Below are positions 53,018-60,083 of a stretch of DNA of 64,000 nucleotides, in pieces. The stretch lies in the NCBI RefSeq assembly GCF_054482595.1, contig NZ_CM137008.1; one strand, 5' to 3'. Numbering within the stretch: the stretch's first letter is position 1; every line of letters starts with the position of its first letter. Under the pieces are notes generated by a model, which searched no databases, was not told the origin of the DNA, and saw only the letters and a program-made list of their open reading frames with translations. A program made the translations under genes and the position numbers.

Positions 53018-53512
53018 ATGACCAGAGACGATTATAAATTTTATATTCACTACTCTTATGTATTGGAGAAGATGAATTACACGTTGTTAACTCGTATTGA
53101 TAAATTAATAACGTTGATGTTAATCGTTCTCGGTTTTTCAGTTTTCGCCCCGTACAGTAATTTATTTATTTTCGGTTTGTTTGTTGCCGTACTTTCGGTT
53201 CTTCAGTTGGTCTATCAGTTCGGCCAGGAGGCTGGGATGTCTAAAGAACAAGCGAGGCATTACAAAAGACTGCTGATTGAGTCTGATACTCTTTCTGAAG
53301 ATCAGTTGCAAGCTAGGTATTTAAAAATCCAAGATACCGATAGTAATCCATGGAAATCACTTGAACGAGCGGCTTTCATTCGGGCCTGCATTTTTGCTGG
53401 TGTTCCAACTAAGTACGATCTAACAACCAAAGAAAAATTTATTGCTTGGTGTGCGGGAGATCTACCTCTAGAGAATGAACTAACGGATATTAATGATGAC
53501 CAACAAGCATAA
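53018..53512 (+). CDS. Small membrane protein with two N-terminal TM helices; SieB-like position (superinfection exclusion candidate)
   Basis: 164 aa, AT-rich, hydrophobic segments LITLMLIVLGFSVFAPY and LFIFGLFVAVLSVLQLVY; sits between early-left region and cI on opposite strand. Confidence 0.65.
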   Translation: MTRDDYKFYIHYSYVLEKMNYTLLTRIDKLITLMLIVLGFSVFAPYSNLFIFGLFVAVLSVLQLVYQFGQEAGMSKEQARHYKRLLIESDTLSEDQLQARYLKIQDTDSNPWKSLERAAFIRACIFAGVPTKYDLTTKEKFIAWCAGDLPLENELTDINDDQQA

Positions 53513-53567
53513 TCCAGTTCACGGACATGTACCTCCGAAGCCGAAACCACCGAAACCGAAGAAATGA
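53496..53567 (+). CDS. Putative 23-aa proline-rich micro-ORF (MTNKHNPVHGHVPPKPKPPKPKK)
   Basis: ATG overlapping the 3' end of the 164-aa ORF; see findings. Confidence 0.3.
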   Translation: MTNKHNPVHGHVPPKPKPPKPKK

Positions 53568-53586
53568 GACATAATAGGATTGGATA

Positions 53587-53655
53587 ATGAGTCGACCAAT
53601 AGAGCCTTTTCATATTCCACCTCGTCCCAGGCCACCAGATCCAGGCCCAAAGTGA
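53587..53655 (+). CDS. Putative 22-aa proline-rich micro-ORF (MSRPIEPFHIPPRPRPPDPGPK)
   Basis: AGGA RBS 7 nt upstream; followed by terminator hairpin. Confidence 0.3.
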   Translation: MSRPIEPFHIPPRPRPPDPGPK

Positions 53656-53678
53656 GGGTTACTGATTTTTAAAGAGCG

Positions 53679-53703
53679 AAGCGTCCGGTAGGGCGCTTTT
53701 TTG
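53679..53703 (+). terminator. Rho-independent terminator closing the membrane-protein/micro-ORF unit
   Basis: AAGCGTCC-GGTA-GGGCGCTT hairpin (one G-U pair) followed by TTTTTT. Confidence 0.6.
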
Positions 53704-53817
53704 TTGCTAACGAATCATCTTGGACTTCATATGCCCCAGGCGGCTACTTCGTGAGCGTCCTGCCTGTTTGTTGTTTCTCTTGGGTACATTATGTATCTCA
53801 AAGGTACATTGTCAAGC

Positions 53818-53842
53818 ATAAAAAAACCTGCCGAAGCAGGTT
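53818..53842 (-). terminator. Rho-independent terminator downstream of cI
   Basis: Minus strand AACCTGC-TTCG-GCAGGTT followed by U-run. Confidence 0.65.
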
Positions 53843-53854
53843 CATAAACATTGA

Positions 53855-54529
53855 TTAGGCTTTGATTTTGTATCTTCTTGGTTTTCCTGAGAAAATCACA
53901 GTACCAATTATAGAGCAATTACCGTTGATCTTAATGTAAGGCTCAGGCCAGTTTGGGTTTAACGCTTTGAGATAACGCTGTGTCCCATCTTCTATCAACC
54001 TTTTGAAGGTGGTTTCACCTGTATCGTGCATCAATGCAATAACGTCGTCACCGTGGCAGGCAGGTACTTCAGGATCGACAAAAATCATGTCTCCCGGGCG
54101 GTACTCATCAATCATTGAATCACCTATCACCCGCAAGATATAAGTCATTTCCCCACAGGGTACAGGGCAGGGATACGTTTCTGCTGTGCTCAAATCAACC
54201 TCAGAATATCCAACTTCTTTCCATGCTCCGGCCTGTACCCATGATATGACAGGGACTAATGTGATTTGTTTATTAGTGATTGAAACATCAGGTTTTTTTG
54301 TGATGTTCGTTGTCTGGTGTTCTTGATCGAGCCATCCGACAGGCAGGTCGAAACATTTTTCGATGTGTCGTGCCATGCTGTCACCGATATTTTTAGTAGC
54401 ACCATCTCCCATAAACCTGCTGGTTTGGGTTGGCTCGCGATCAATCATAGTGGCAAAGGAAGAATTCCCGCCAACACCATCTCTCAGTTTTCTGGCGTTA
54501 GACCGCCGGATGTCATGGATTGTTTTCAT
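53855..54529 (-). CDS. Phage repressor CI-like (HTH plus S24 LexA-type autopeptidase domain)
   Basis: 224 aa; C-terminal ...VIGDSMIDEYRPGDMIFVDPE... S24 Ser/Lys peptidase signature; divergent from cro-like gene. Confidence 0.88.
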   Translation of the reverse strand: MKTIHDIRRSNARKLRDGVGGNSSFATMIDREPTQTSRFMGDGATKNIGDSMARHIEKCFDLPVGWLDQEHQTTNITKKPDVSITNKQITLVPVISWVQAGAWKEVGYSEVDLSTAETYPCPVPCGEMTYILRVIGDSMIDEYRPGDMIFVDPEVPACHGDDVIALMHDTGETTFKRLIEDGTQRYLKALNPNWPEPYIKINGNCSIIGTVIFSGKPRRYKIKA

Positions 54530-54544
54530 AACGAAATTAAAACC

Positions 54545-54565
54545 CTTGTACCGTTAAGGTACAAG
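54545..54565. promoter_or_regulatory. Operator-like perfect palindrome CTTGTACC-GTTAA-GGTACAAG in cI/cro intergenic
   Basis: Read directly; GGTAC(A) half-sites recur near 54607, 53776, 53800 and 52617. Confidence 0.6.
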
Positions 54566-54569
54566 TATC

Positions 54570-54597
54570 TTGAAGGTTCATTTTAATCATGTAATAT
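54570..54597 (+). promoter_or_regulatory. Candidate pR-like sigma70 promoter (TTGAAG-N16-TAATAT) for cro-like gene
   Basis: -35/-10 hexamers adjacent to operator palindrome, GGAGG RBS downstream. Confidence 0.5.
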
Positions 54598-54619
54598 GTA
54601 TACCGGAGGTACATATTGT

Positions 54620-54820
54620 ATGAAAGCGTATTGGGACTCTTTAACCAAAGAACAGCAGGGCGAGTTGGCCGGAAAAGTTGGCTCAACACCTGGCTACTTA
54701 CGGCTGGTTTTCAATGGCTATAAAAAAGCCAGTTTTGTGCTGGCTAAAAAACTTGAGCAATGCACGTCAGGTGCAATTACGAAATCTGACTTAAGACCGG
54801 ATATCTATCCGAAAGATTAG
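54620..54820 (+). CDS. Cro/YdaS-like small HTH regulator
   Basis: 66 aa from MKAYWDSL; position and size; ORF-track start 54596 lies upstream of predicted -10. Confidence 0.75.
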   Translation: MKAYWDSLTKEQQGELAGKVGSTPGYLRLVFNGYKKASFVLAKKLEQCTSGAITKSDLRPDIYPKD

Positions 54821-54851
54821 CAGAACACTTTCAATTTTTAACCACAGAACG

Positions 54852-55415
54852 ATGAGGCTAATCGTGGGTAAGCATCACTGGAAAATAGAAAAACAGCCTG
54901 AGTGGTACATGAAAGCTGTCAGAAAAACTATCGCGGCGTTGCCGGGTGGTTACGCTGAAGCCGCTGACTGGCTGGATGTAACAGAGAACGCATTATTTAA
55001 CCGCCTTCGTGCCGATGGCGATCAGATTTTCCCGCTGGGATGGGCAATGATTTTGCAACGTGCTGGTGGAACTCACTTCATTGCTGATGCTGTGGCGCAG
55101 TCTGCAAATGGCGTCTTTGTGTCTCTTCCTGACGTCGAGGATGTGGACAACGCCGATATTAACCAGCGTCTGCTGGAAGTCATTGAACAGATTGGCAGTT
55201 ATTCAAAACAGATTCGTTCAGCAATCGAAGACGGTGTAGTGGAACCGCATGAGAAGACAGCAATTAATGACGAGCTGTACCTCTCAATTTCGAAGCTGCA
55301 GGAGCATGCAGCACTGGTCTACAAAATTTTTTGCATTTCAGAAAGTAATGACGCCCGCGAGTGTGCAGCTCCGGGCGCCGTGGCGTGTCGTGACTGTGGA
55401 GAAACTAACGCATGA
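54852..55415 (+). CDS. Hypothetical early protein in CII/YdaT position (possibly CP76-type CII-like regulator)
   Basis: 187 aa ORF directly after cro-like gene; family assignment tentative. Confidence 0.6.
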
Positions 55416-55750
55416 ACAGTTTAACAACACATTACCGTCGCTCGCAACTGATTGCACTTCCTGTACCGGGTGGAAAAGCGAAGGTGGAGTATTGCTATGC
55501 AGTGAATGTACCAGGTGACAGGGAAATTGTAACCCACAGCTTTGCAGAGTGGGCTGTGGGCGATTTCAACCGGCAAAAGGAGACAGTCCTTTGCGACAAG
55601 TTAACCGCTGGTTCAAAGATCACTACGGAGTGCCCGTCAGAGTCATTCGTTGGGAGCCGGAAACACAACGGGTTATCTACCTCCGCGAAGGCTATGAGCA
55701 TGAGTGCTTCAGCCCGCTCGAACAGTTTCGTCGTAAATTCAGGGAAATAG
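55412..55750 (+). CDS. Hypothetical protein; overlaps alternative frame 55549..55770 (possible frameshift or overlapping genes)
   Basis: ATGA-coupled to upstream gene; second frame is ATGA-coupled to downstream replication gene. Confidence 0.4.
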
Positions 55751-55759
55751 AGGTCGGTC

Positions 55760-56701
55760 ATGAGCACTAAATTAACCGGCTATGTATGGGATGGTTGCGC
55801 TGCGTCAGGCATGAAGTTATCCAGCGTGGCAATTATGGCCCGCCTGGCTGATTTCAGTAATGACGAAGGTGTGTGCTGGCCATCAATTGAAACCATTGCC
55901 CGCCAGATTGGCGCGGGGATGAGCACCGTCAGAACGGCTATCGCACGGCTGGAAGCAGAAGGCTGGTTAACTCGTAAGGCGCGTCGCCAGGGTAACCGCA
56001 ATGCGTCGAATGTTTATCAGCTTAACGTTGCGAAGCTTCAGGCAGCGGCATTTTCTCAACTGTCAGATTCTGACCCGTCAAAATCTGACGCATCAAAATC
56101 TGACCCGTCAAAATTTGATGCGTCGAAATCTGGCAAAAAAGCGGGTTTTCACCCGTCAGAATCTGGCGGGGATCCGTCAGTAAAATCAAAACATGATCCG
56201 TCAGATAAAAAAAACTCTCGTCCGGACGCTTCGCAACCGGACACGCAGATGGATGAACAGGATTTTTTAACTCGCCATCCTGATGCGGTTGTATTCAGCC
56301 CTAAAAAGCGCCAGTGGGGGACGCAGGATGATTTGACCTGCGCACAGTGGCTCTGGAAAAAAATCATCGCCCTGTACGAGCAGGCTGCCGAATGTGACGG
56401 CGAGGTGGTTCGTCCCAAAGAACCGAACTGGACAGCCTGGGCAAACGAAATTCGCCTGATGTGTGTGCAGGATGGTCGTACTCACAAACAAATCTGCGAG
56501 ATGTACAGCCGCGTCAGCCGCGATCCGTTCTGGTGCCGTAACGTGCTCAGCCCGTCGAAGCTGCGGGAAAAATGGGATGAGCTTTCCCTGCGCTTATCGC
56601 CGTCCGTAAGCACGTACACCGAAAAACGCGAAGACCCGTACTTCAAATCCAGTTACGACAACGTGGACTACAGCCAGATCCCGGCAGGATTCAGGGGGTG
56701 A
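55760..56701 (+). CDS. Phage replication initiator (O-like, N-terminal winged-helix DNA-binding domain) containing iteron array
   Basis: 313 aa; N-terminal HTH-like region; internal SDSDPSKSDASKSDPSKFDASKSG repeats encoded by DNA direct repeats. Confidence 0.7.
   Translation: MSTKLTGYVWDGCAASGMKLSSVAIMARLADFSNDEGVCWPSIETIARQIGAGMSTVRTAIARLEAEGWLTRKARRQGNRNASNVYQLNVAKLQAAAFSQLSDSDPSKSDASKSDPSKFDASKSGKKAGFHPSESGGDPSVKSKHDPSDKKNSRPDASQPDTQMDEQDFLTRHPDAVVFSPKKRQWGTQDDLTCAQWLWKKIIALYEQAAECDGEVVRPKEPNWTAWANEIRLMCVQDGRTHKQICEMYSRVSRDPFWCRNVLSPSKLREKWDELSLRLSPSVSTYTEKREDPYFKSSYDNVDYSQIPAGFRG
56062..56215. repeat. Iteron-like direct repeats (~15-nt CGTCA(A/G)AATCTGAC units, about 8 copies): candidate phage replication origin
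   Basis: Tandem near-identical units read directly inside replication gene, as in lambda O/ori. Confidence 0.6.
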
Positions 56702-57192
56702 TCATGAGTCTTTTGAATGACGTTCAGAAATTCATTGAAGCCCATCCGGGGTGTACTTCCGGAGACATTGCGGATGCTTTTGCTGGTTACTCACGGCAGC
56801 GCGTTCTGCAGTCAGCAAGCAAGTTACGTCAGAGTGGGCGTGTGGCTCACCGTTGTGAAGGGGATACACGCAGACATTTCCCGCGCCTGACTGAGAGAGC
56901 GCAGGAACTGGAACCACAACCAGTTCGAGAAACCAGATCTGTGCGCAATTTCTATGTCGGCACTAACGATCCCCGGGTGATTTTGTGCCTGACCCGCCAG
57001 GCTGAAAAACTGGAGTCCAGGGGCTTATACCGTCGTGCTGCAACGGTGTGGATGGCGGCATTCCGTGAAAGCCACTCCCAGCCAGAACGAAACAATTTTC
57101 TGGCGCGTCGTGAGCAGTGTTTACGGAAAAGCAGCAAGCGCGCTGTATCGAGTGATGAGTGGTATCTGTCAGGGAATTACGTGGGGGCGTAA
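56698..57192 (+). CDS. Hypothetical phage protein (tentative PerC/ANR-like C-terminal motif)
   Basis: 164 aa ORF coupled to neighbours; motif LESRGLYRRAATVWMAAF; no Walker motif so not a DnaC-type loader. Confidence 0.55.
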   Translation: MIMSLLNDVQKFIEAHPGCTSGDIADAFAGYSRQRVLQSASKLRQSGRVAHRCEGDTRRHFPRLTERAQELEPQPVRETRSVRNFYVGTNDPRVILCLTRQAEKLESRGLYRRAATVWMAAFRESHSQPERNNFLARREQCLRKSSKRAVSSDEWYLSGNYVGA

Positions 57193-57518
57193 TGACGACG
57201 TTAACTCAATGCCAGCAGCAGGTGCTGGATATGCTGATTTCTTATCAGAAAGAGCGTGGCTTTCCGCCAACCAATCAGGAGGTGGCAACCATGCTGGGAT
57301 ACCGTTCAGTGAATGCAGCGGTAGAGCATCTTCGCGCACTGGAGAAAAAAGGCGTCATCACGATAAAGCGTGGCGTGGCCCGGGGGATAACGCTTCATAC
57401 CGCGGTGAAGGACGACGACAGCGAGGCGGTCGGGATTATCCGCGCACTGCTTGCCGGTGAGGAAAACGCAAGGCTGCGTGCAACCCACTGGTTACATGAG
57501 AGGGGCCTGAAAGTATGA
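57192..57518 (+). CDS. LexA N-terminal DNA-binding domain protein (no peptidase domain)
   Basis: QQQVLDMLISYQKERGFPPTNQEVATMLGYRSVNAAVEHLRALEKKGVI parallels LexA N-terminal winged helix (QQEVFDLI...GMPPTRAEIA...[21 protein letters not shown]). Confidence 0.75.
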   Translation: MTTLTQCQQQVLDMLISYQKERGFPPTNQEVATMLGYRSVNAAVEHLRALEKKGVITIKRGVARGITLHTAVKDDDSEAVGIIRALLAGEENARLRATHWLHERGLKV

Positions 57519-57904
57519 AGCTGATCCTGCCTTTTCCGCCCAGCGTGAACACGTACTGGCGACACCCCAACAAAGGGGCGTTTGCTGGTAAGAGCCTGAT
57601 AAGCGCGGCGGGGCGAAAATTCCAGAGCGCGGCGTGTGCAGCAATAGTTGAGCAGTTACGTCGTCTGCCGAAACCAACGTCGGCACCTGCTTCAGTGGAG
57701 ATCGTGTTGTTTCCTCCGGATAACCGGATCCGCGATCTGGACAACTATAACAAGGCGCTGTTTGACGCCCTGACCCACGCGGGTGTGTGGGAAGACGACA
57801 GCCAGGTGAAAAGAATGTTGGTGGAGTGGGGACCGGTTATCCCGGAAGGGAAGGTCGAGATCACTATCAGTAAGTACGAGAAAACGGCGGGTGCAGCCGC
57901 CTGA
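57515..57904 (+). CDS. rusA: Holliday junction resolvase RusA
   Basis: 129 aa; LPFPPSVNTYWRH...DLDNYNKALFDALT motif typical of RusA. Confidence 0.88.
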   Translation: MKLILPFPPSVNTYWRHPNKGAFAGKSLISAAGRKFQSAACAAIVEQLRRLPKPTSAPASVEIVLFPPDNRIRDLDNYNKALFDALTHAGVWEDDSQVKRMLVEWGPVIPEGKVEITISKYEKTAGAAA

Positions 57905-57923
57905 TCAAGAGGAGAAACGAAGT

Positions 57924-58721
57924 ATGAATAATCTGATGGTCATTGATGGTATTGAAGTTCGTCGTGATGCTTATGGGCGTTACAGCCTGAACGATCTGCA
58001 CAGGGCTGCCGGTTCTCTGGATAAGCATAAGCCTGCATTCTGGCTCCGCAATGAGCAAACTGAACGTTTAATAAGCGAGTTGCAGATTTGCAACTCGGTC
58101 AATATAGAGCCAGTTAACGTTATTCGCGGCGGAAATAATCAGGGGACGTATGTCTGTAAGGAACTGGTGTATGCCTATGCAATGTGGATCAGCCCGTCAT
58201 TCCATCTGAAGGTGATCCGTACTTTCGACATGGTAACCAGCGCACCGGAAAAATTATCCGGACAGGCTGCTGACAAGATGCAGGCTGGAGTGATTCTGCT
58301 GGACTTTATGCGTCGGGAGTTAAACCTGTCTAACTCATCTGTGCTTGGGGCCTGTCAAAAACTCCAGGAGGCTGTTGGCTTACCGAATCTGGCACCGCGC
58401 TATGCCATTGATGCTCCTGCTGATGCACACGATGGCTCAAGTCGCCCCACGCTGTCGCTGAGTGCACTGCTGAAGCAGTATGGTATCCGCCTGACGGCTA
58501 ATCAGGCATATCACCAGATGGTGAAGCTGGGGATCGTTGAACAACGCGAACGATACAGCCGTACCGCGATTAACAACATCAAAAAATTCTGGTCGCTGAC
58601 AGCGAAAGGCTGCATGTTCGGCAAGAACATCACCAGTCCCGCAAATCCGCGCGAGACGCAGCCGCATTTCTTCGAATCCCGATTCCCTGAGCTGTTAAAG
58701 CTGCTCGATACCGTTCATTGA
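57924..58721 (+). CDS. KilA-N domain protein (antirepressor-like)
   Basis: MNNLMVIDGIEVRRDAYGRYSLNDLHRAAG...KPAFWLRNEQT N-terminal KilA-N signature. Confidence 0.75.
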   Translation: MNNLMVIDGIEVRRDAYGRYSLNDLHRAAGSLDKHKPAFWLRNEQTERLISELQICNSVNIEPVNVIRGGNNQGTYVCKELVYAYAMWISPSFHLKVIRTFDMVTSAPEKLSGQAADKMQAGVILLDFMRRELNLSNSSVLGACQKLQEAVGLPNLAPRYAIDAPADAHDGSSRPTLSLSALLKQYGIRLTANQAYHQMVKLGIVEQRERYSRTAINNIKKFWSLTAKGCMFGKNITSPANPRETQPHFFESRFPELLKLLDTVH

Positions 58722-58722
58722 G

Positions 58723-59718
58723 GTGACCGTGAGAGCACTACTGACCCCTGAAATTGCCCCGCGTATGGGGATCGTATTGTTCAGACCAGGTTCAGAACTG
58801 ATGCCCCTGTTTATGCAGGGGCGTGTCCTGCTGGAGCCTGAGCCGGAACGTTATTCATCTTTCGCCAGTGGTGCCGTTCCGGCAGCATCACAACCGCTGG
58901 CGGATGATCCTGCCGTTCGGGCCGTGTTCCGCAATGAGGCAGTGATCCGTCGTGCTGGTGGCGTGGAATGTCTTGAAAGCTGGTTACTTCGTGAAAAAGG
59001 CTGTCAGTGGCCTCACTCCGACTGGCACAGCGAAAACATGACCACAACGCGCCATGCGCCGGGCGCAATCCGTCTGTGCTGGCACTGCGATAACCAGTTG
59101 CGTGACCAGTTCACGGAACGGCTGGAATCAATGGCAACGGATAACTGTGCCCGCTGGGTGTTATCTGTTGTGCGCCGTGATCTCGGTTTTGATGATAGTC
59201 ACGTTGTGACAATGCCGGAACTGTGCTGGTGGCTGGTTCGTAATGACCTGGCGGATGCCTTACCGGAAAGTGCAGCCCGTAAGGCACTGAGATTACCGAA
59301 GCCTGTTGTGCCGTCTGTCACCCGGGAAAGTGACCTTGTTCCTTCGGTTCCTGCCACCAGCATCATCCAGGATAAGGCGAAAAAGGTGCTGGCGCTGAAA
59401 GTGGATCCGGAGTCACCGGAGTCTTTTATGTTACGCCCAAAACGTCGCCGCTGGGTTAATGAAAAGTACACGCGCTGGGTTAAGACACAGCCGTGTGCAT
59501 GTTGTGGAAAGCCCGCTGATGATCCCCACCACCTGATAGGCCATGGTCAGGGTGGAATGGGGACAAAAGCGCATGACCTCTTTGTGTTGCCTTTGTGCAG
59601 AAAGCATCACGACGAGCTGCATGCGGATACCGTGGCATTTGAAGAGATGTATGGCTCCCAGCTGGAGCTGATATTTCGTTTTATCGATCGTGCGCTGGCA
59701 ATTGGTGTGCTGGCCTGA
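58723..59718 (+). CDS. DUF968-family phage protein (YdfU-like)
   Basis: 331 aa; C-terminal Cys/His-rich CACCGKPADDPHHLIGHGQGGMGTKAHDLFVLPLCRKHHDELH. Confidence 0.7.
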   Translation: MTVRALLTPEIAPRMGIVLFRPGSELMPLFMQGRVLLEPEPERYSSFASGAVPAASQPLADDPAVRAVFRNEAVIRRAGGVECLESWLLREKGCQWPHSDWHSENMTTTRHAPGAIRLCWHCDNQLRDQFTERLESMATDNCARWVLSVVRRDLGFDDSHVVTMPELCWWLVRNDLADALPESAARKALRLPKPVVPSVTRESDLVPSVPATSIIQDKAKKVLALKVDPESPESFMLRPKRRRWVNEKYTRWVKTQPCACCGKPADDPHHLIGHGQGGMGTKAHDLFVLPLCRKHHDELHADTVAFEEMYGSQLELIFRFIDRALAIGVLA

Positions 59719-59720
59719 TT

Positions 59721-60083
59721 TTGTGGAGAAAGTTGATGCGTGATATGTATGAAGTAATGGATCGTTGGGGAGCTTGGGCTGCTTCAGACAATAGCGGAGT
59801 GGACTGGCAACCGGTAGCCGCTGGCTTCAAGGGACTTTTACCTCATGGCAAAAAGTCCCGGATTCAGTGTGATGATGACGAAGGCATTATGATAGACAGT
59901 TGTGTGGCTCGGTTGCGTAAATATAGGCCTGAAGAATATGAGCTAATCATTGCTCACTTTGTTATCGGTATCTCATTACGCACTATTGCGAAGAAGAGAA
60001 AATGCTCTGATGGGACTATAAGAAAAAAGTTGCAAGCTGCATTGGGATTTATTGATGCAGTTATATATATAATACATGGGTAA
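59721..60083 (+). CDS. Late-gene antiterminator Q (QuuD-type)
   Basis: 120 aa; DRWGAWAA...AAGFKGLL...KSR.QCDDD...CSDG... closely parallels QuuD-family Q proteins. Confidence 0.85.
   Translation: MWRKLMRDMYEVMDRWGAWAASDNSGVDWQPVAAGFKGLLPHGKKSRIQCDDDEGIMIDSCVARLRKYRPEEYELIIAHFVIGISLRTIAKKRKCSDGTIRKKLQAALGFIDAVIYIIHG

Follow-up and report, generated by a model that had tools for sequence, protein, structure and literature searches.

The stretch analysed here, referred to as the window, comprises 64,000 nucleotides of contig NZ_CM137008.1 (NCBI RefSeq assembly GCF_054482595.1) and carries, at 55760-56701 on the + strand, a gene for a 313-residue, O-like replication initiator with an array of short repeats inside its coding sequence. 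The gene is identified from its open reading frame (ORF), from a match to the PHROG family phrog_391 ('replication initiation O-like', E = 2.8e-135) and from phage records, and its DNA is 98% identical to the gp41 region of Shigella phage SfIV; RefSeq labels it only as a 'helix-turn-helix domain-containing protein' and annotates no origin. Shigella phages SfIV and SfII, together with several E. coli phages, match the surrounding region at 97-98% identity, and the host element reads as a lambdoid prophage of the SfIV/SfII/CPS-53 type. A first-pass annotation, made from the letters alone, had proposed that repeats at 56062-56215 mark a probable phage origin lying within the initiator gene, as the lambda origin lies within gene O.

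The initiator gene and the repeats within it

The N-terminal domain of the initiator (residues 1-99; 55760-56056, + strand) is assigned as a winged helix-turn-helix on the basis of Pfam, AlphaFold2 and fold matches. Pfam places HTH_36 there with E = 4.3e-11, and only winged-helix models of the HTH_36/GntR/MarR type match, over residues 23-80. In an AlphaFold2 model of the initiator built with 41 homologues, the domain contains helices at residues 43-50 and 54-66 and a beta hairpin at 70-73/85-88; the recognition helix, STVRTAIARLEAEGW, corresponds to residues 55-69, and the wing is TRKARRQGNRNASNVYQLN. Foldseek matches this domain to generic MarR/ArsR-type winged-helix regulators, no close solved structure of the initiator was found in the PDB, and the domain is presumed to be the reader of the repeats. 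The C-terminal domain (residues 166-278; 56255-56593, + strand), which AlphaFold2 models as a confident helical domain with a predicted local distance difference test (pLDDT) score of ~90 or more, is homologous to lambda O and phi80 gp15. Residues 131-277 are 36% identical to lambda O (tblastn, E = 3e-19), and BLASTP gives 36% identity to the C-terminal part of phi80 gp15 (E = 4e-25); together with the phrog_391 match, these results agree with the earlier assignment of the gene as a replication initiator. As regards a possible kinship with DnaD-like replisome organisers of the SPP1 G38P type, which also have the origin inside the gene, Pfam DnaD_N scores 19.4 bits, under its cut-off of 27, and the PHROG family 'DnaD-like helicase loader' (phrog_2514) matches with E = 4e-29. 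Pfam gives no Rep_3 match in the initiator, and RP-C (E = 0.0047) fails its cut-off. Between the two confident domains, residues 103-161 have pLDDT values <50 and are predicted to be disordered. The ORF translation confirms that the repeats encode a Ser/Asp/Lys-rich stretch, SDSDPSKSDASKSDPSKFDASKSG...DPSESGGDPSVKSKHDPSDKK, as had been stated in the first-pass annotation; the iterons and GATC-led repeats described below correspond to residues 101-153 and therefore encode just the disordered linker.

Positions 56062-56134 are filled by five 15-bp units arranged head to tail, each of them a 13-bp palindrome GTCARAWTCTGAC, with the iterons themselves at 56062-56074, 56077-56089, 56092-56104, 56107-56119 and 56122-56134; a sixth iteron, GTCAGAATCTGGC, lies 33 bp past the fifth at 56155-56167. 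The six copies, which start at 56062, 56077, 56092, 56107, 56122 and 56155, carry 0-2 mismatches to GTCARAWTCTGAC. Read from 56062, the letters of the array are GTCAGATTCTGAC cc GTCAAAATCTGAC gc ATCAAAATCTGAC cc GTCAAAATTTGAT gc GTCGAAATCTGGC, in which GTCAGATTCTGAC is a perfect palindrome and the remaining copies depart from dyad symmetry at 1-2 positions. Tandem Repeats Finder reports 56069-56132 both with a period of 15 (4.3 copies, 81% matches, score 86) and with a period of 30 (2.1 copies, 88%, score 100). A repeat search recovers six in-register copies at spacings of 15, 15, 15, 15 and 33, the first of which (56048-56077, 67% identity to the reference copy) begins upstream of 56062, and finds the units to be inverted repeats of themselves and of one another. 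At ≤2 mismatches, the 64-kb window holds 16 match rows for GTCARAWTCTGAC, 11 of them inside the 106 bp of 56062-56167; 100 shuffles give a mean of 4.3 and a maximum of 11 with none at 16, and this search detects no cluster of the motif elsewhere in the window. The coordinates given in the first-pass annotation are accurate, but its count of about eight repeats of ~15 nt stands only when weak or half copies are added to the five strict tandem units and the one displaced unit; these extras, one degenerate (56185-56197) and two half-sites (56176 and 56200), belong to the family of 24-bp repeats led by GATCC.

Relatives of the initiator were collected by scanning one genome per species with an alignment of the N-terminal domain; the 75 loci obtained represent dozens of genera, nearly all belonging to the Enterobacterales. 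The sixth iteron is the best conserved copy among these relatives, its CAGAATCTGG being 93-99% conserved in 66 loci. Iterons five and six are separated by a 20-bp spacer, AAAAAAGCGGGTTTTCACCC (56135-56154), which contains an A6 tract and GCGGGTTTTCACCC; its bases TTTT and ACC show conservation of at least 92% in the same 66 loci. On the minus strand, a small terminator-like hairpin, CGGGTGAAAACCCG, followed by T6 is present between iterons five and six (56142-56155), the stem of which is kept only in part among relatives. The only hit on the array in an Rfam search of 53500-58000 was to a microRNA model, far under its threshold (30.7 bits, where the gathering score is 97), a match that arises from the palindromes and was rejected. 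Single-strand folding of the repeat region gives z = -5.9, again because of the palindromes, and does not discriminate between hypotheses; the GC skew shows only a local dip at the repeats, which results from repeat composition and is uninformative.

To the right of the iterons are two 24-bp A/T-rich repeats, each starting with GATCC, at 56171-56194 (GATCCGTCAGTAAAATCAAAACAT) and 56195-56218 (GATCCGTCAGATAAAAAAAACTCT), which were identified in the repeat search and contain two Dam sites. An A/T-rich element adjacent to the iterons, which the first-pass annotation had suggested looking for, is thereby present: 56176-56215 is 70% A+T, compared to 47% for the whole gene, and is the least stable 40-mer of the gene, with a ΔG of -46.2 against a mean of -55.8 (standard deviation 3.9) over the 40-mers of 53500-60000. 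GATC is retained at 70/73 loci in the first repeat and at 64/73 in the second, with the 24-nt spacing kept in 66/73. Moreover, most positions of the block matching 56146-56206 of the window show conservation of at least 90% in 66 distinct loci, in an alignment anchored on the GATC pair so that ten anchor positions are fixed by the way the loci were chosen and the others are free. The conserved pattern, TTTT.ACC....CAGAATCTGG....GATCCGT.AGTAAA.TCAA......GATCC, is common to initiators of the R-helix and I-helix classes (see below) and to every C-terminal type. The GATC-led repeats align with the place of the A/T-rich region in lambda and phi80, and 56171-56218 is a candidate DNA-unwinding element; a role for its two Dam sites is suggested by analogy with the oriC 13-mers and P1 oriR. 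A methyltransferase gene often lies directly 3' of the initiator gene (L002, L003, L004, L008, L009, L167 and 27/77 analysed loci), the types found being phage Dam (PF05869-like), MT-A70-like, Dcm-like and host-type Dam. These adjoining genes may have some connection with the pair of conserved GATC sites of the proposed origin core; the window and SfIV have no methyltransferase gene after the initiator.

Constraint on the repeats as DNA

When the 70-residue linker peptide is kept and its codons are redrawn from the gene's own usage in 1000 recodings, the recoded linkers contain on average 0.21 hits to TCARAWTCTGA at ≤1 mismatch, with a maximum of 3. The observed number is 5, a value reached in 0/1000 recodings. 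The same test with class-specific motifs at 22 other loci, which come from other genera, gives 0/1000 at 19 of these, 5/1000 at L106 and 1/1000 at L006 and L158, and the motif derived from the window is present in far greater excess than recoding would give in its Yersinia, Proteus, Providencia, Rahnella and Pantoea relatives. For comparison, four-fold sites in the N-terminal domain show 33% identity when the window is set against the 19 type-A loci most distant from it (type A being the head and iterons of the window), which is near saturation. Serine codons are TCA or TCT in 83% of cases in 52 distinct type-A linkers as against 37% elsewhere in the same genes, and the choice of codon for both Ser and Asp is position-specific in the repeats. 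Asp-Pro dipeptides inside the array use GAC in 99/100 cases, whereas those at the two downstream repeats use GAT, thus creating GATC, in 70/73 and 64/73 loci. A register based on the peptide pattern proved too permissive for codon counts, and the Asp-Pro and recoding tests were used instead.

The motif is also found outside the frame in which the window reads it. In Stx2_KH16-043 (L005), the copy TTCAGAATCTGAC is translated as L-Q-N-L, that is, in another reading frame, and nine loci have copies in two reading frames. The natural variants P0055 and P0105 carry the array in another frame (..TRQNL..) and later return to frame. The L008 initiator, which combines an unrelated N-terminal domain with the same C-terminal domain, has four or five repeats of 23 nt (CATCGGGTCAAAATG..) that fall in different frames, together with its own 12-nt A/T-rich repeats, directly after which the shared sequence starts. 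Gain or loss of copies can leave the frame intact because the iteron period equals five codons.

These observations bear on the possibility that the region is a slippage-prone, low-complexity coding repeat that provides a flexible Ser/Asp/Lys linker and has no function as DNA. Such an explanation would account for pentapeptide repeats in a predicted disordered linker and for a copy number that ranges from ~0-1 to ~8 among homologues, as slippage would give. Codon choice, however, is fixed far beyond the needs of the peptide, so that the recoding test largely refutes this idea, and the motif survives in other frames and with periods (23 nt and 16/17 nt) that are not multiples of three. In addition, the repeat units are palindromes, and the peptide varies at one position (S, F, P, I or Y) while the DNA shifts by single bases. 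We therefore regard a purely coding repeat as scarcely credible. Four independent tests instead indicate that the repeats are constrained as DNA and not as peptide.

Iteron classes and modular inheritance

Whole-motif matching at ≤2 mismatches failed to separate class A from class B. In the comparison of classes, sites were picked only by the generic frame [TC]CA-N5-TG[AG] and then tabulated position by position. Initiators with the recognition helix ST[VI]R.. (57 loci, 286 sites) have C at +2 (83%), G/A at -6 and C at +6 (65%), corresponding to the unit GTCA[AG]AWTCTGAC. Those with STVI.. (9 loci, 37 sites) have T at -6 (81%), A at +6 (95%) and C at +7 (70%), and their unit, GTYCAGAWTCTGRAC, has one extra base pair per half-site. 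The third group, with STVK/TTVS/NTVT.. helices (9 loci, 49 sites), has A at -2 (94%), T at +2 (84%) and a variable centre, giving the unit GTCAA-N3-TTGAC. The bases that separate the helix classes, over a total of 77 loci, are those at +2, +/-6 and 7. Other heads come with other periods, units of 16/17 nt being found with STVYGAL and of 30 nt at L092/L093, and the layout of n x 15 followed by 33 is found again in most loci. This correspondence between helix class and iteron is what co-evolution of initiator and iterons would predict.

Three kinds of C-terminal domain are joined to the type-A head and iterons: the lambda-O-like domain in the window, SfIV and Klebsiella phage 1 LV-2017; the Phg_2220_C domain in phiNP, YeP3 and LLS; and a third domain, followed by a DnaC-like gene, in Stx2_KH16-043. 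Inheritance thus treats the head, the iterons and the A/T-rich block as a single unit, which is the classic behaviour of the origin-specificity modules of lambdoid phages. The module is intact in the viable phages SfIV, SfII, LLS, phiNP and YeP3.

It could be argued that the reader of this DNA is a host protein or another phage regulator, or that the sequence has been retained as a recombination 'linker' where mosaic modules join. The block 56146-56206 is nearly invariant whatever the helix class or C-terminal type, as a common reader or a junction sequence would require, and mosaic breakpoints are located just to the right of this block. The tandem array, on the other hand, differs with the recognition-helix class of the initiator and is replaced completely when the N-terminal domain is swapped, so that these proposals are applicable only to the shared GATC block and not to the iterons. 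We give them very little credence as an account of the region, and favour the initiator itself as the reader of the iterons.

A scan of viral contigs with alignment of the C-terminal domain yielded near-identical loci only, and served for the study of copy-number polymorphism rather than the comparison of helices with iterons. Among near-identical prophages, the tandem copy number is polymorphic, ranging from ~0-1 to ~8 units (proteins P0010, P0015, P0018, P0032, P0055, P0068 and P0105; loci L041, L056, L070, L086 and L087), and the 5+1 arrangement is retained in all sequenced phage isolates checked. Several copies (L037, L039, L040/L045 and L088) are truncated at one same point (..|NRNASNVYQLN; ~55993-56010 in the window), which is shared by the CPS-53/yfdO-like copy of E. 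coli K-12 strains (H95, H96); these truncated copies have kept the iterons and C-terminal domain and have lost the winged helix. A 10-bp direct repeat, ATGCGTCGAA, at 56001 and 56118 matches the deletion in protein P0020.

The repeat region as a probable replication origin

The repeat region is very probably a prophage replication origin embedded in the disordered linker of its own initiator gene. The element is of a known kind, the initiator-embedded iteron origin of the ori-lambda type, and the first-pass proposal of a phage origin is thus supported by comparison, with the tests for a DNA site all pointing to one. Like the window, lambda has dyad-symmetric iterons in the inter-domain linker of gene O, an A/T-rich region immediately to the right of these, and a homologous C-terminal domain (36% identity), so that the elements follow one another in the same order (iterons, A/T-rich region, C-terminal domain); the earlier comparison with lambda O is borne out by the alignment of this order and of the A/T-rich regions. 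In both, the initiator gene is in the early rightward operon behind a cII-like gene. Lambda differs, however, in having four iterons of ~18-19 bp placed ~20-24 bp apart, rather than 5+1 palindromes of 13 bp at 15-bp spacing, and in the N-terminal domain of O, which is Pfam Phage_rep_O; the window protein is HTH_36 with no Phage_rep_O match. Moreover, the A/T-rich region of lambda is without GATC, that of the window is weaker, and lambda has gene P downstream, for which there is no comparable gene in the window. In phi80, binding sites for gp15 are annotated within gene 15 and the C-terminal domain of gp15 is homologous, and in P22 a rep_origin is annotated within gene 18. Both phi80 gp15 and P22 gp18, in contrast to the window protein, have Phage_rep_O N-terminal domains and repeats ~21 bp apart, and a loader or helicase gene adjoins the initiator gene (P-like gp14 and DnaB-like gp12, respectively). 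What distinguishes the element is that its head is of the HTH_36 type, that its palindromic iterons abut at 15 bp and so keep a five-codon register, that its core, led by GATC, is highly conserved, and that the module has an O homologue only.

Iteron plasmids and P1 oriR also have arrays of initiator-binding iterons beside an A/T-rich region, which in P1 oriR contains GATC-bearing repeats and requires Dam methylation. In plasmids the iterons are situated outside the rep gene with helical phasing of ~22 bp, are accompanied by DnaA boxes, and are read by Rep proteins with two winged-helix domains (Rep_3). The repeats of the window, by contrast, are inside the gene and have a period of 15 bp, with no Rep_3 match and no DnaA box.

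An origin in phage L has been predicted from distinct, imprecise repeats in the coding region of gene 18, with the statement of a general rule (PMC8022706). That phage differs from the window in its 11-bp repeat (TGTCCAACGGA), in the sequence type of its initiator and in the presence of a DnaB-type helicase gene (PMC8022706). A recent survey found that 34 of 314 lambdoid phages have an O homologue only, none of which has been studied and whose replication 'is not yet understood' (PMC12315714, 2025). Phage LLS, at 79% identity over residues 1-164, has the N-terminal domain, the iterons and the GATC repeats in common with the window and likewise has no loader; it differs in its Phg_2220_C-type C-terminal domain and in the methyltransferase gene that comes next. 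The LLS paper does not describe an origin (PMC12315714), nor do the SfIV and SfI genome papers, and the motif strings were not found in a relevant context in the accessible literature.

In the mechanism that we propose, the N-terminal winged-helix domain would bind the 13-bp palindromic iterons, five at 15-bp spacing and one 33 bp on, and the iteron-bound initiator would form a nucleoprotein complex resembling the lambda O-some. This complex would destabilise the adjacent A/T-rich, GATC-led 24-bp repeats (56171-56218), and the lambda-O-like C-terminal domain, together with the C-terminal tail of the initiator, would recruit the host replicative helicase. Alternatively, the iterons might be initiator-binding sites that serve autoregulation, copy control or handcuffing, with replication starting elsewhere in the prophage. 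Plasmid iterons have control roles as well, and the A/T-rich element is only moderate, with richer A/T stretches being available in the immunity region at 53.5-54.8 kb. The 64 kb, however, contain no second cluster of the iteron motif, and both the C-terminal domain and the order of elements are homologous to lambda and phi80, in which the origin has exactly this position. The fact that the N-terminal domain, iterons and A/T-rich block move as one module in mosaics is a further argument against purely regulatory sites, and we consider it quite unlikely that replication begins elsewhere.

Several points nevertheless weigh against an origin at the repeats. We found no binding or origin assay for this initiator family in the accessible literature, and a spacing of 15 bp between palindrome centres leaves unusually little room for a winged-helix dimer and is unlike the ~20-24 bp seen in lambda, phi80 and P22. 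The correspondence of helix to iteron is drawn from few clades and represents about 3-5 independent events, a small number because the helix classes are clades. The A/T-rich element is modest, ranking eighth among the least stable 40-mers of 53500-60000, with the less stable ones being intergenic stretches of the immunity region. Lastly, tblastn gives no match for P-, DnaB- or DnaC-like genes in the 64-kb window (best E = 0.28) and no DnaA box was found within 55760-56701; the origin model therefore does not account for the step after opening.

The replication module (55760-59718) thus classifies as 'O-only'. Upstream of the initiator come, in this order, genes for a LexA-family repressor, a Cro-like (YdaS-family) regulator, a cII-like protein (CP76) and DUF4222, and the initiator is followed downstream by PerC-like (YfdN), a protein with a LexA DNA-binding domain, RusA, KilA-N, DUF968/HNH and Q. 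The C-terminal tail of the initiator, NVDYSQIPAGFRG (56663-56698, + strand), is a short motif common to initiators with other C-terminal domains. When the window is compared with loci L132, L147, L153, L154, L156, L157 and L159, the final ~12 residues of each initiator vary with the gene that follows rather than with the type of C-terminal domain (4 and 4 loci). The tail ..VDYSxxPxGF[RK]G is found where the neighbour is PerC-like, a methylase or DnaC-like, as in O-only or DnaC-like modules, and ..HWNSPEgW[ED]xxL where a lambda-P-like gene is next; it was because of the shared tail that single-linkage clustering of C-terminal ends merged different domain types. The tail may be a loader-docking peptide. 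More speculatively, the O-only lambdoid replicons might form a distinct class in which the ~75-bp core at 56146-56218 (the last iteron and the two GATC-led repeats) acts as a Dam-sensitive element for unwinding and helicase entry that is common to initiators of different iteron specificity, and in which the tail ..VDYSxxPxGF[RK]G docks host DnaC/DnaB directly, replacing lambda P. We put this forward as a doubtful but possible extension of the origin assignment. If it is true that core and tail explain loader-independent recruitment of the helicase, the significance of the element rises.

The anatomy of the proposed origin, the three specificity classes found in nature and the candidate docking tail make it possible to test how lambdoid phages with an O gene and without a loader replicate. 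The motif classes could also serve in prophage-replicon typing and automatic origin annotation, and could help to predict replication incompatibility or cross-activation of co-resident prophages. The element is common, yet unannotated as an origin in RefSeq: the segment comprising head and iterons (55760-56260) is present in 2106 of 5426 complete E. coli genomes (39%), at ≤4 copies in any one genome and with 8 of its places on plasmids, and is also present in serotype-converting Shigella phages. Enterobacterial-type copies appear in assemblies labelled Chryseobacterium sp., Martelella alba, Collinsella metagenome-assembled genome (MAG) and Lachnospiraceae MAG (L125, L134, L158 and L159), probably as a result of contamination or mis-binning.

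Further observations concern the right flank of the A/T-rich repeats and the neighbouring ORFs. In Proteus/Providencia-type loci (L115, 1860-2060), the sequence TTCGTCGCAGAATTCTGGCGAATCC, which makes up the 30 bp directly to the right of the A/T-rich repeats, is homologous to the right flank of lambda and to phi80; its counterpart in lambda (L168, 560-600) and phi80 (L010, 6770-6810) is TTCGTCAGAGAATTCTGGCGAATCC, a palindrome that, in lambda, resembles a type-A iteron with added central bases. Loci of the Phg_2220_C type carry GGTTGC-N3-GCAACC in place of TTCGTCGCAGAATTCTGGCGAATCC. Upstream of the initiator gene, an ORF at 55412-55750 (112 residues, phrog_1170; SfIV gp40) overlaps another at 55549-55770 (Pfam DUF4222, E = 3e-19) in a different frame. 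RefSeq has only a 60-residue DUF4222 gene there (55591-55770) and leaves ~55416-55590 empty, and the overlap over 55412-55770 reflects either an annotation conflict or a frameshift relationship. Downstream, the ORF at 57159-57518 encodes 119 residues consisting of a LexA DNA-binding domain (Pfam E = 3.7e-19) without a peptidase domain, and overlaps the end of the PerC-like gene.

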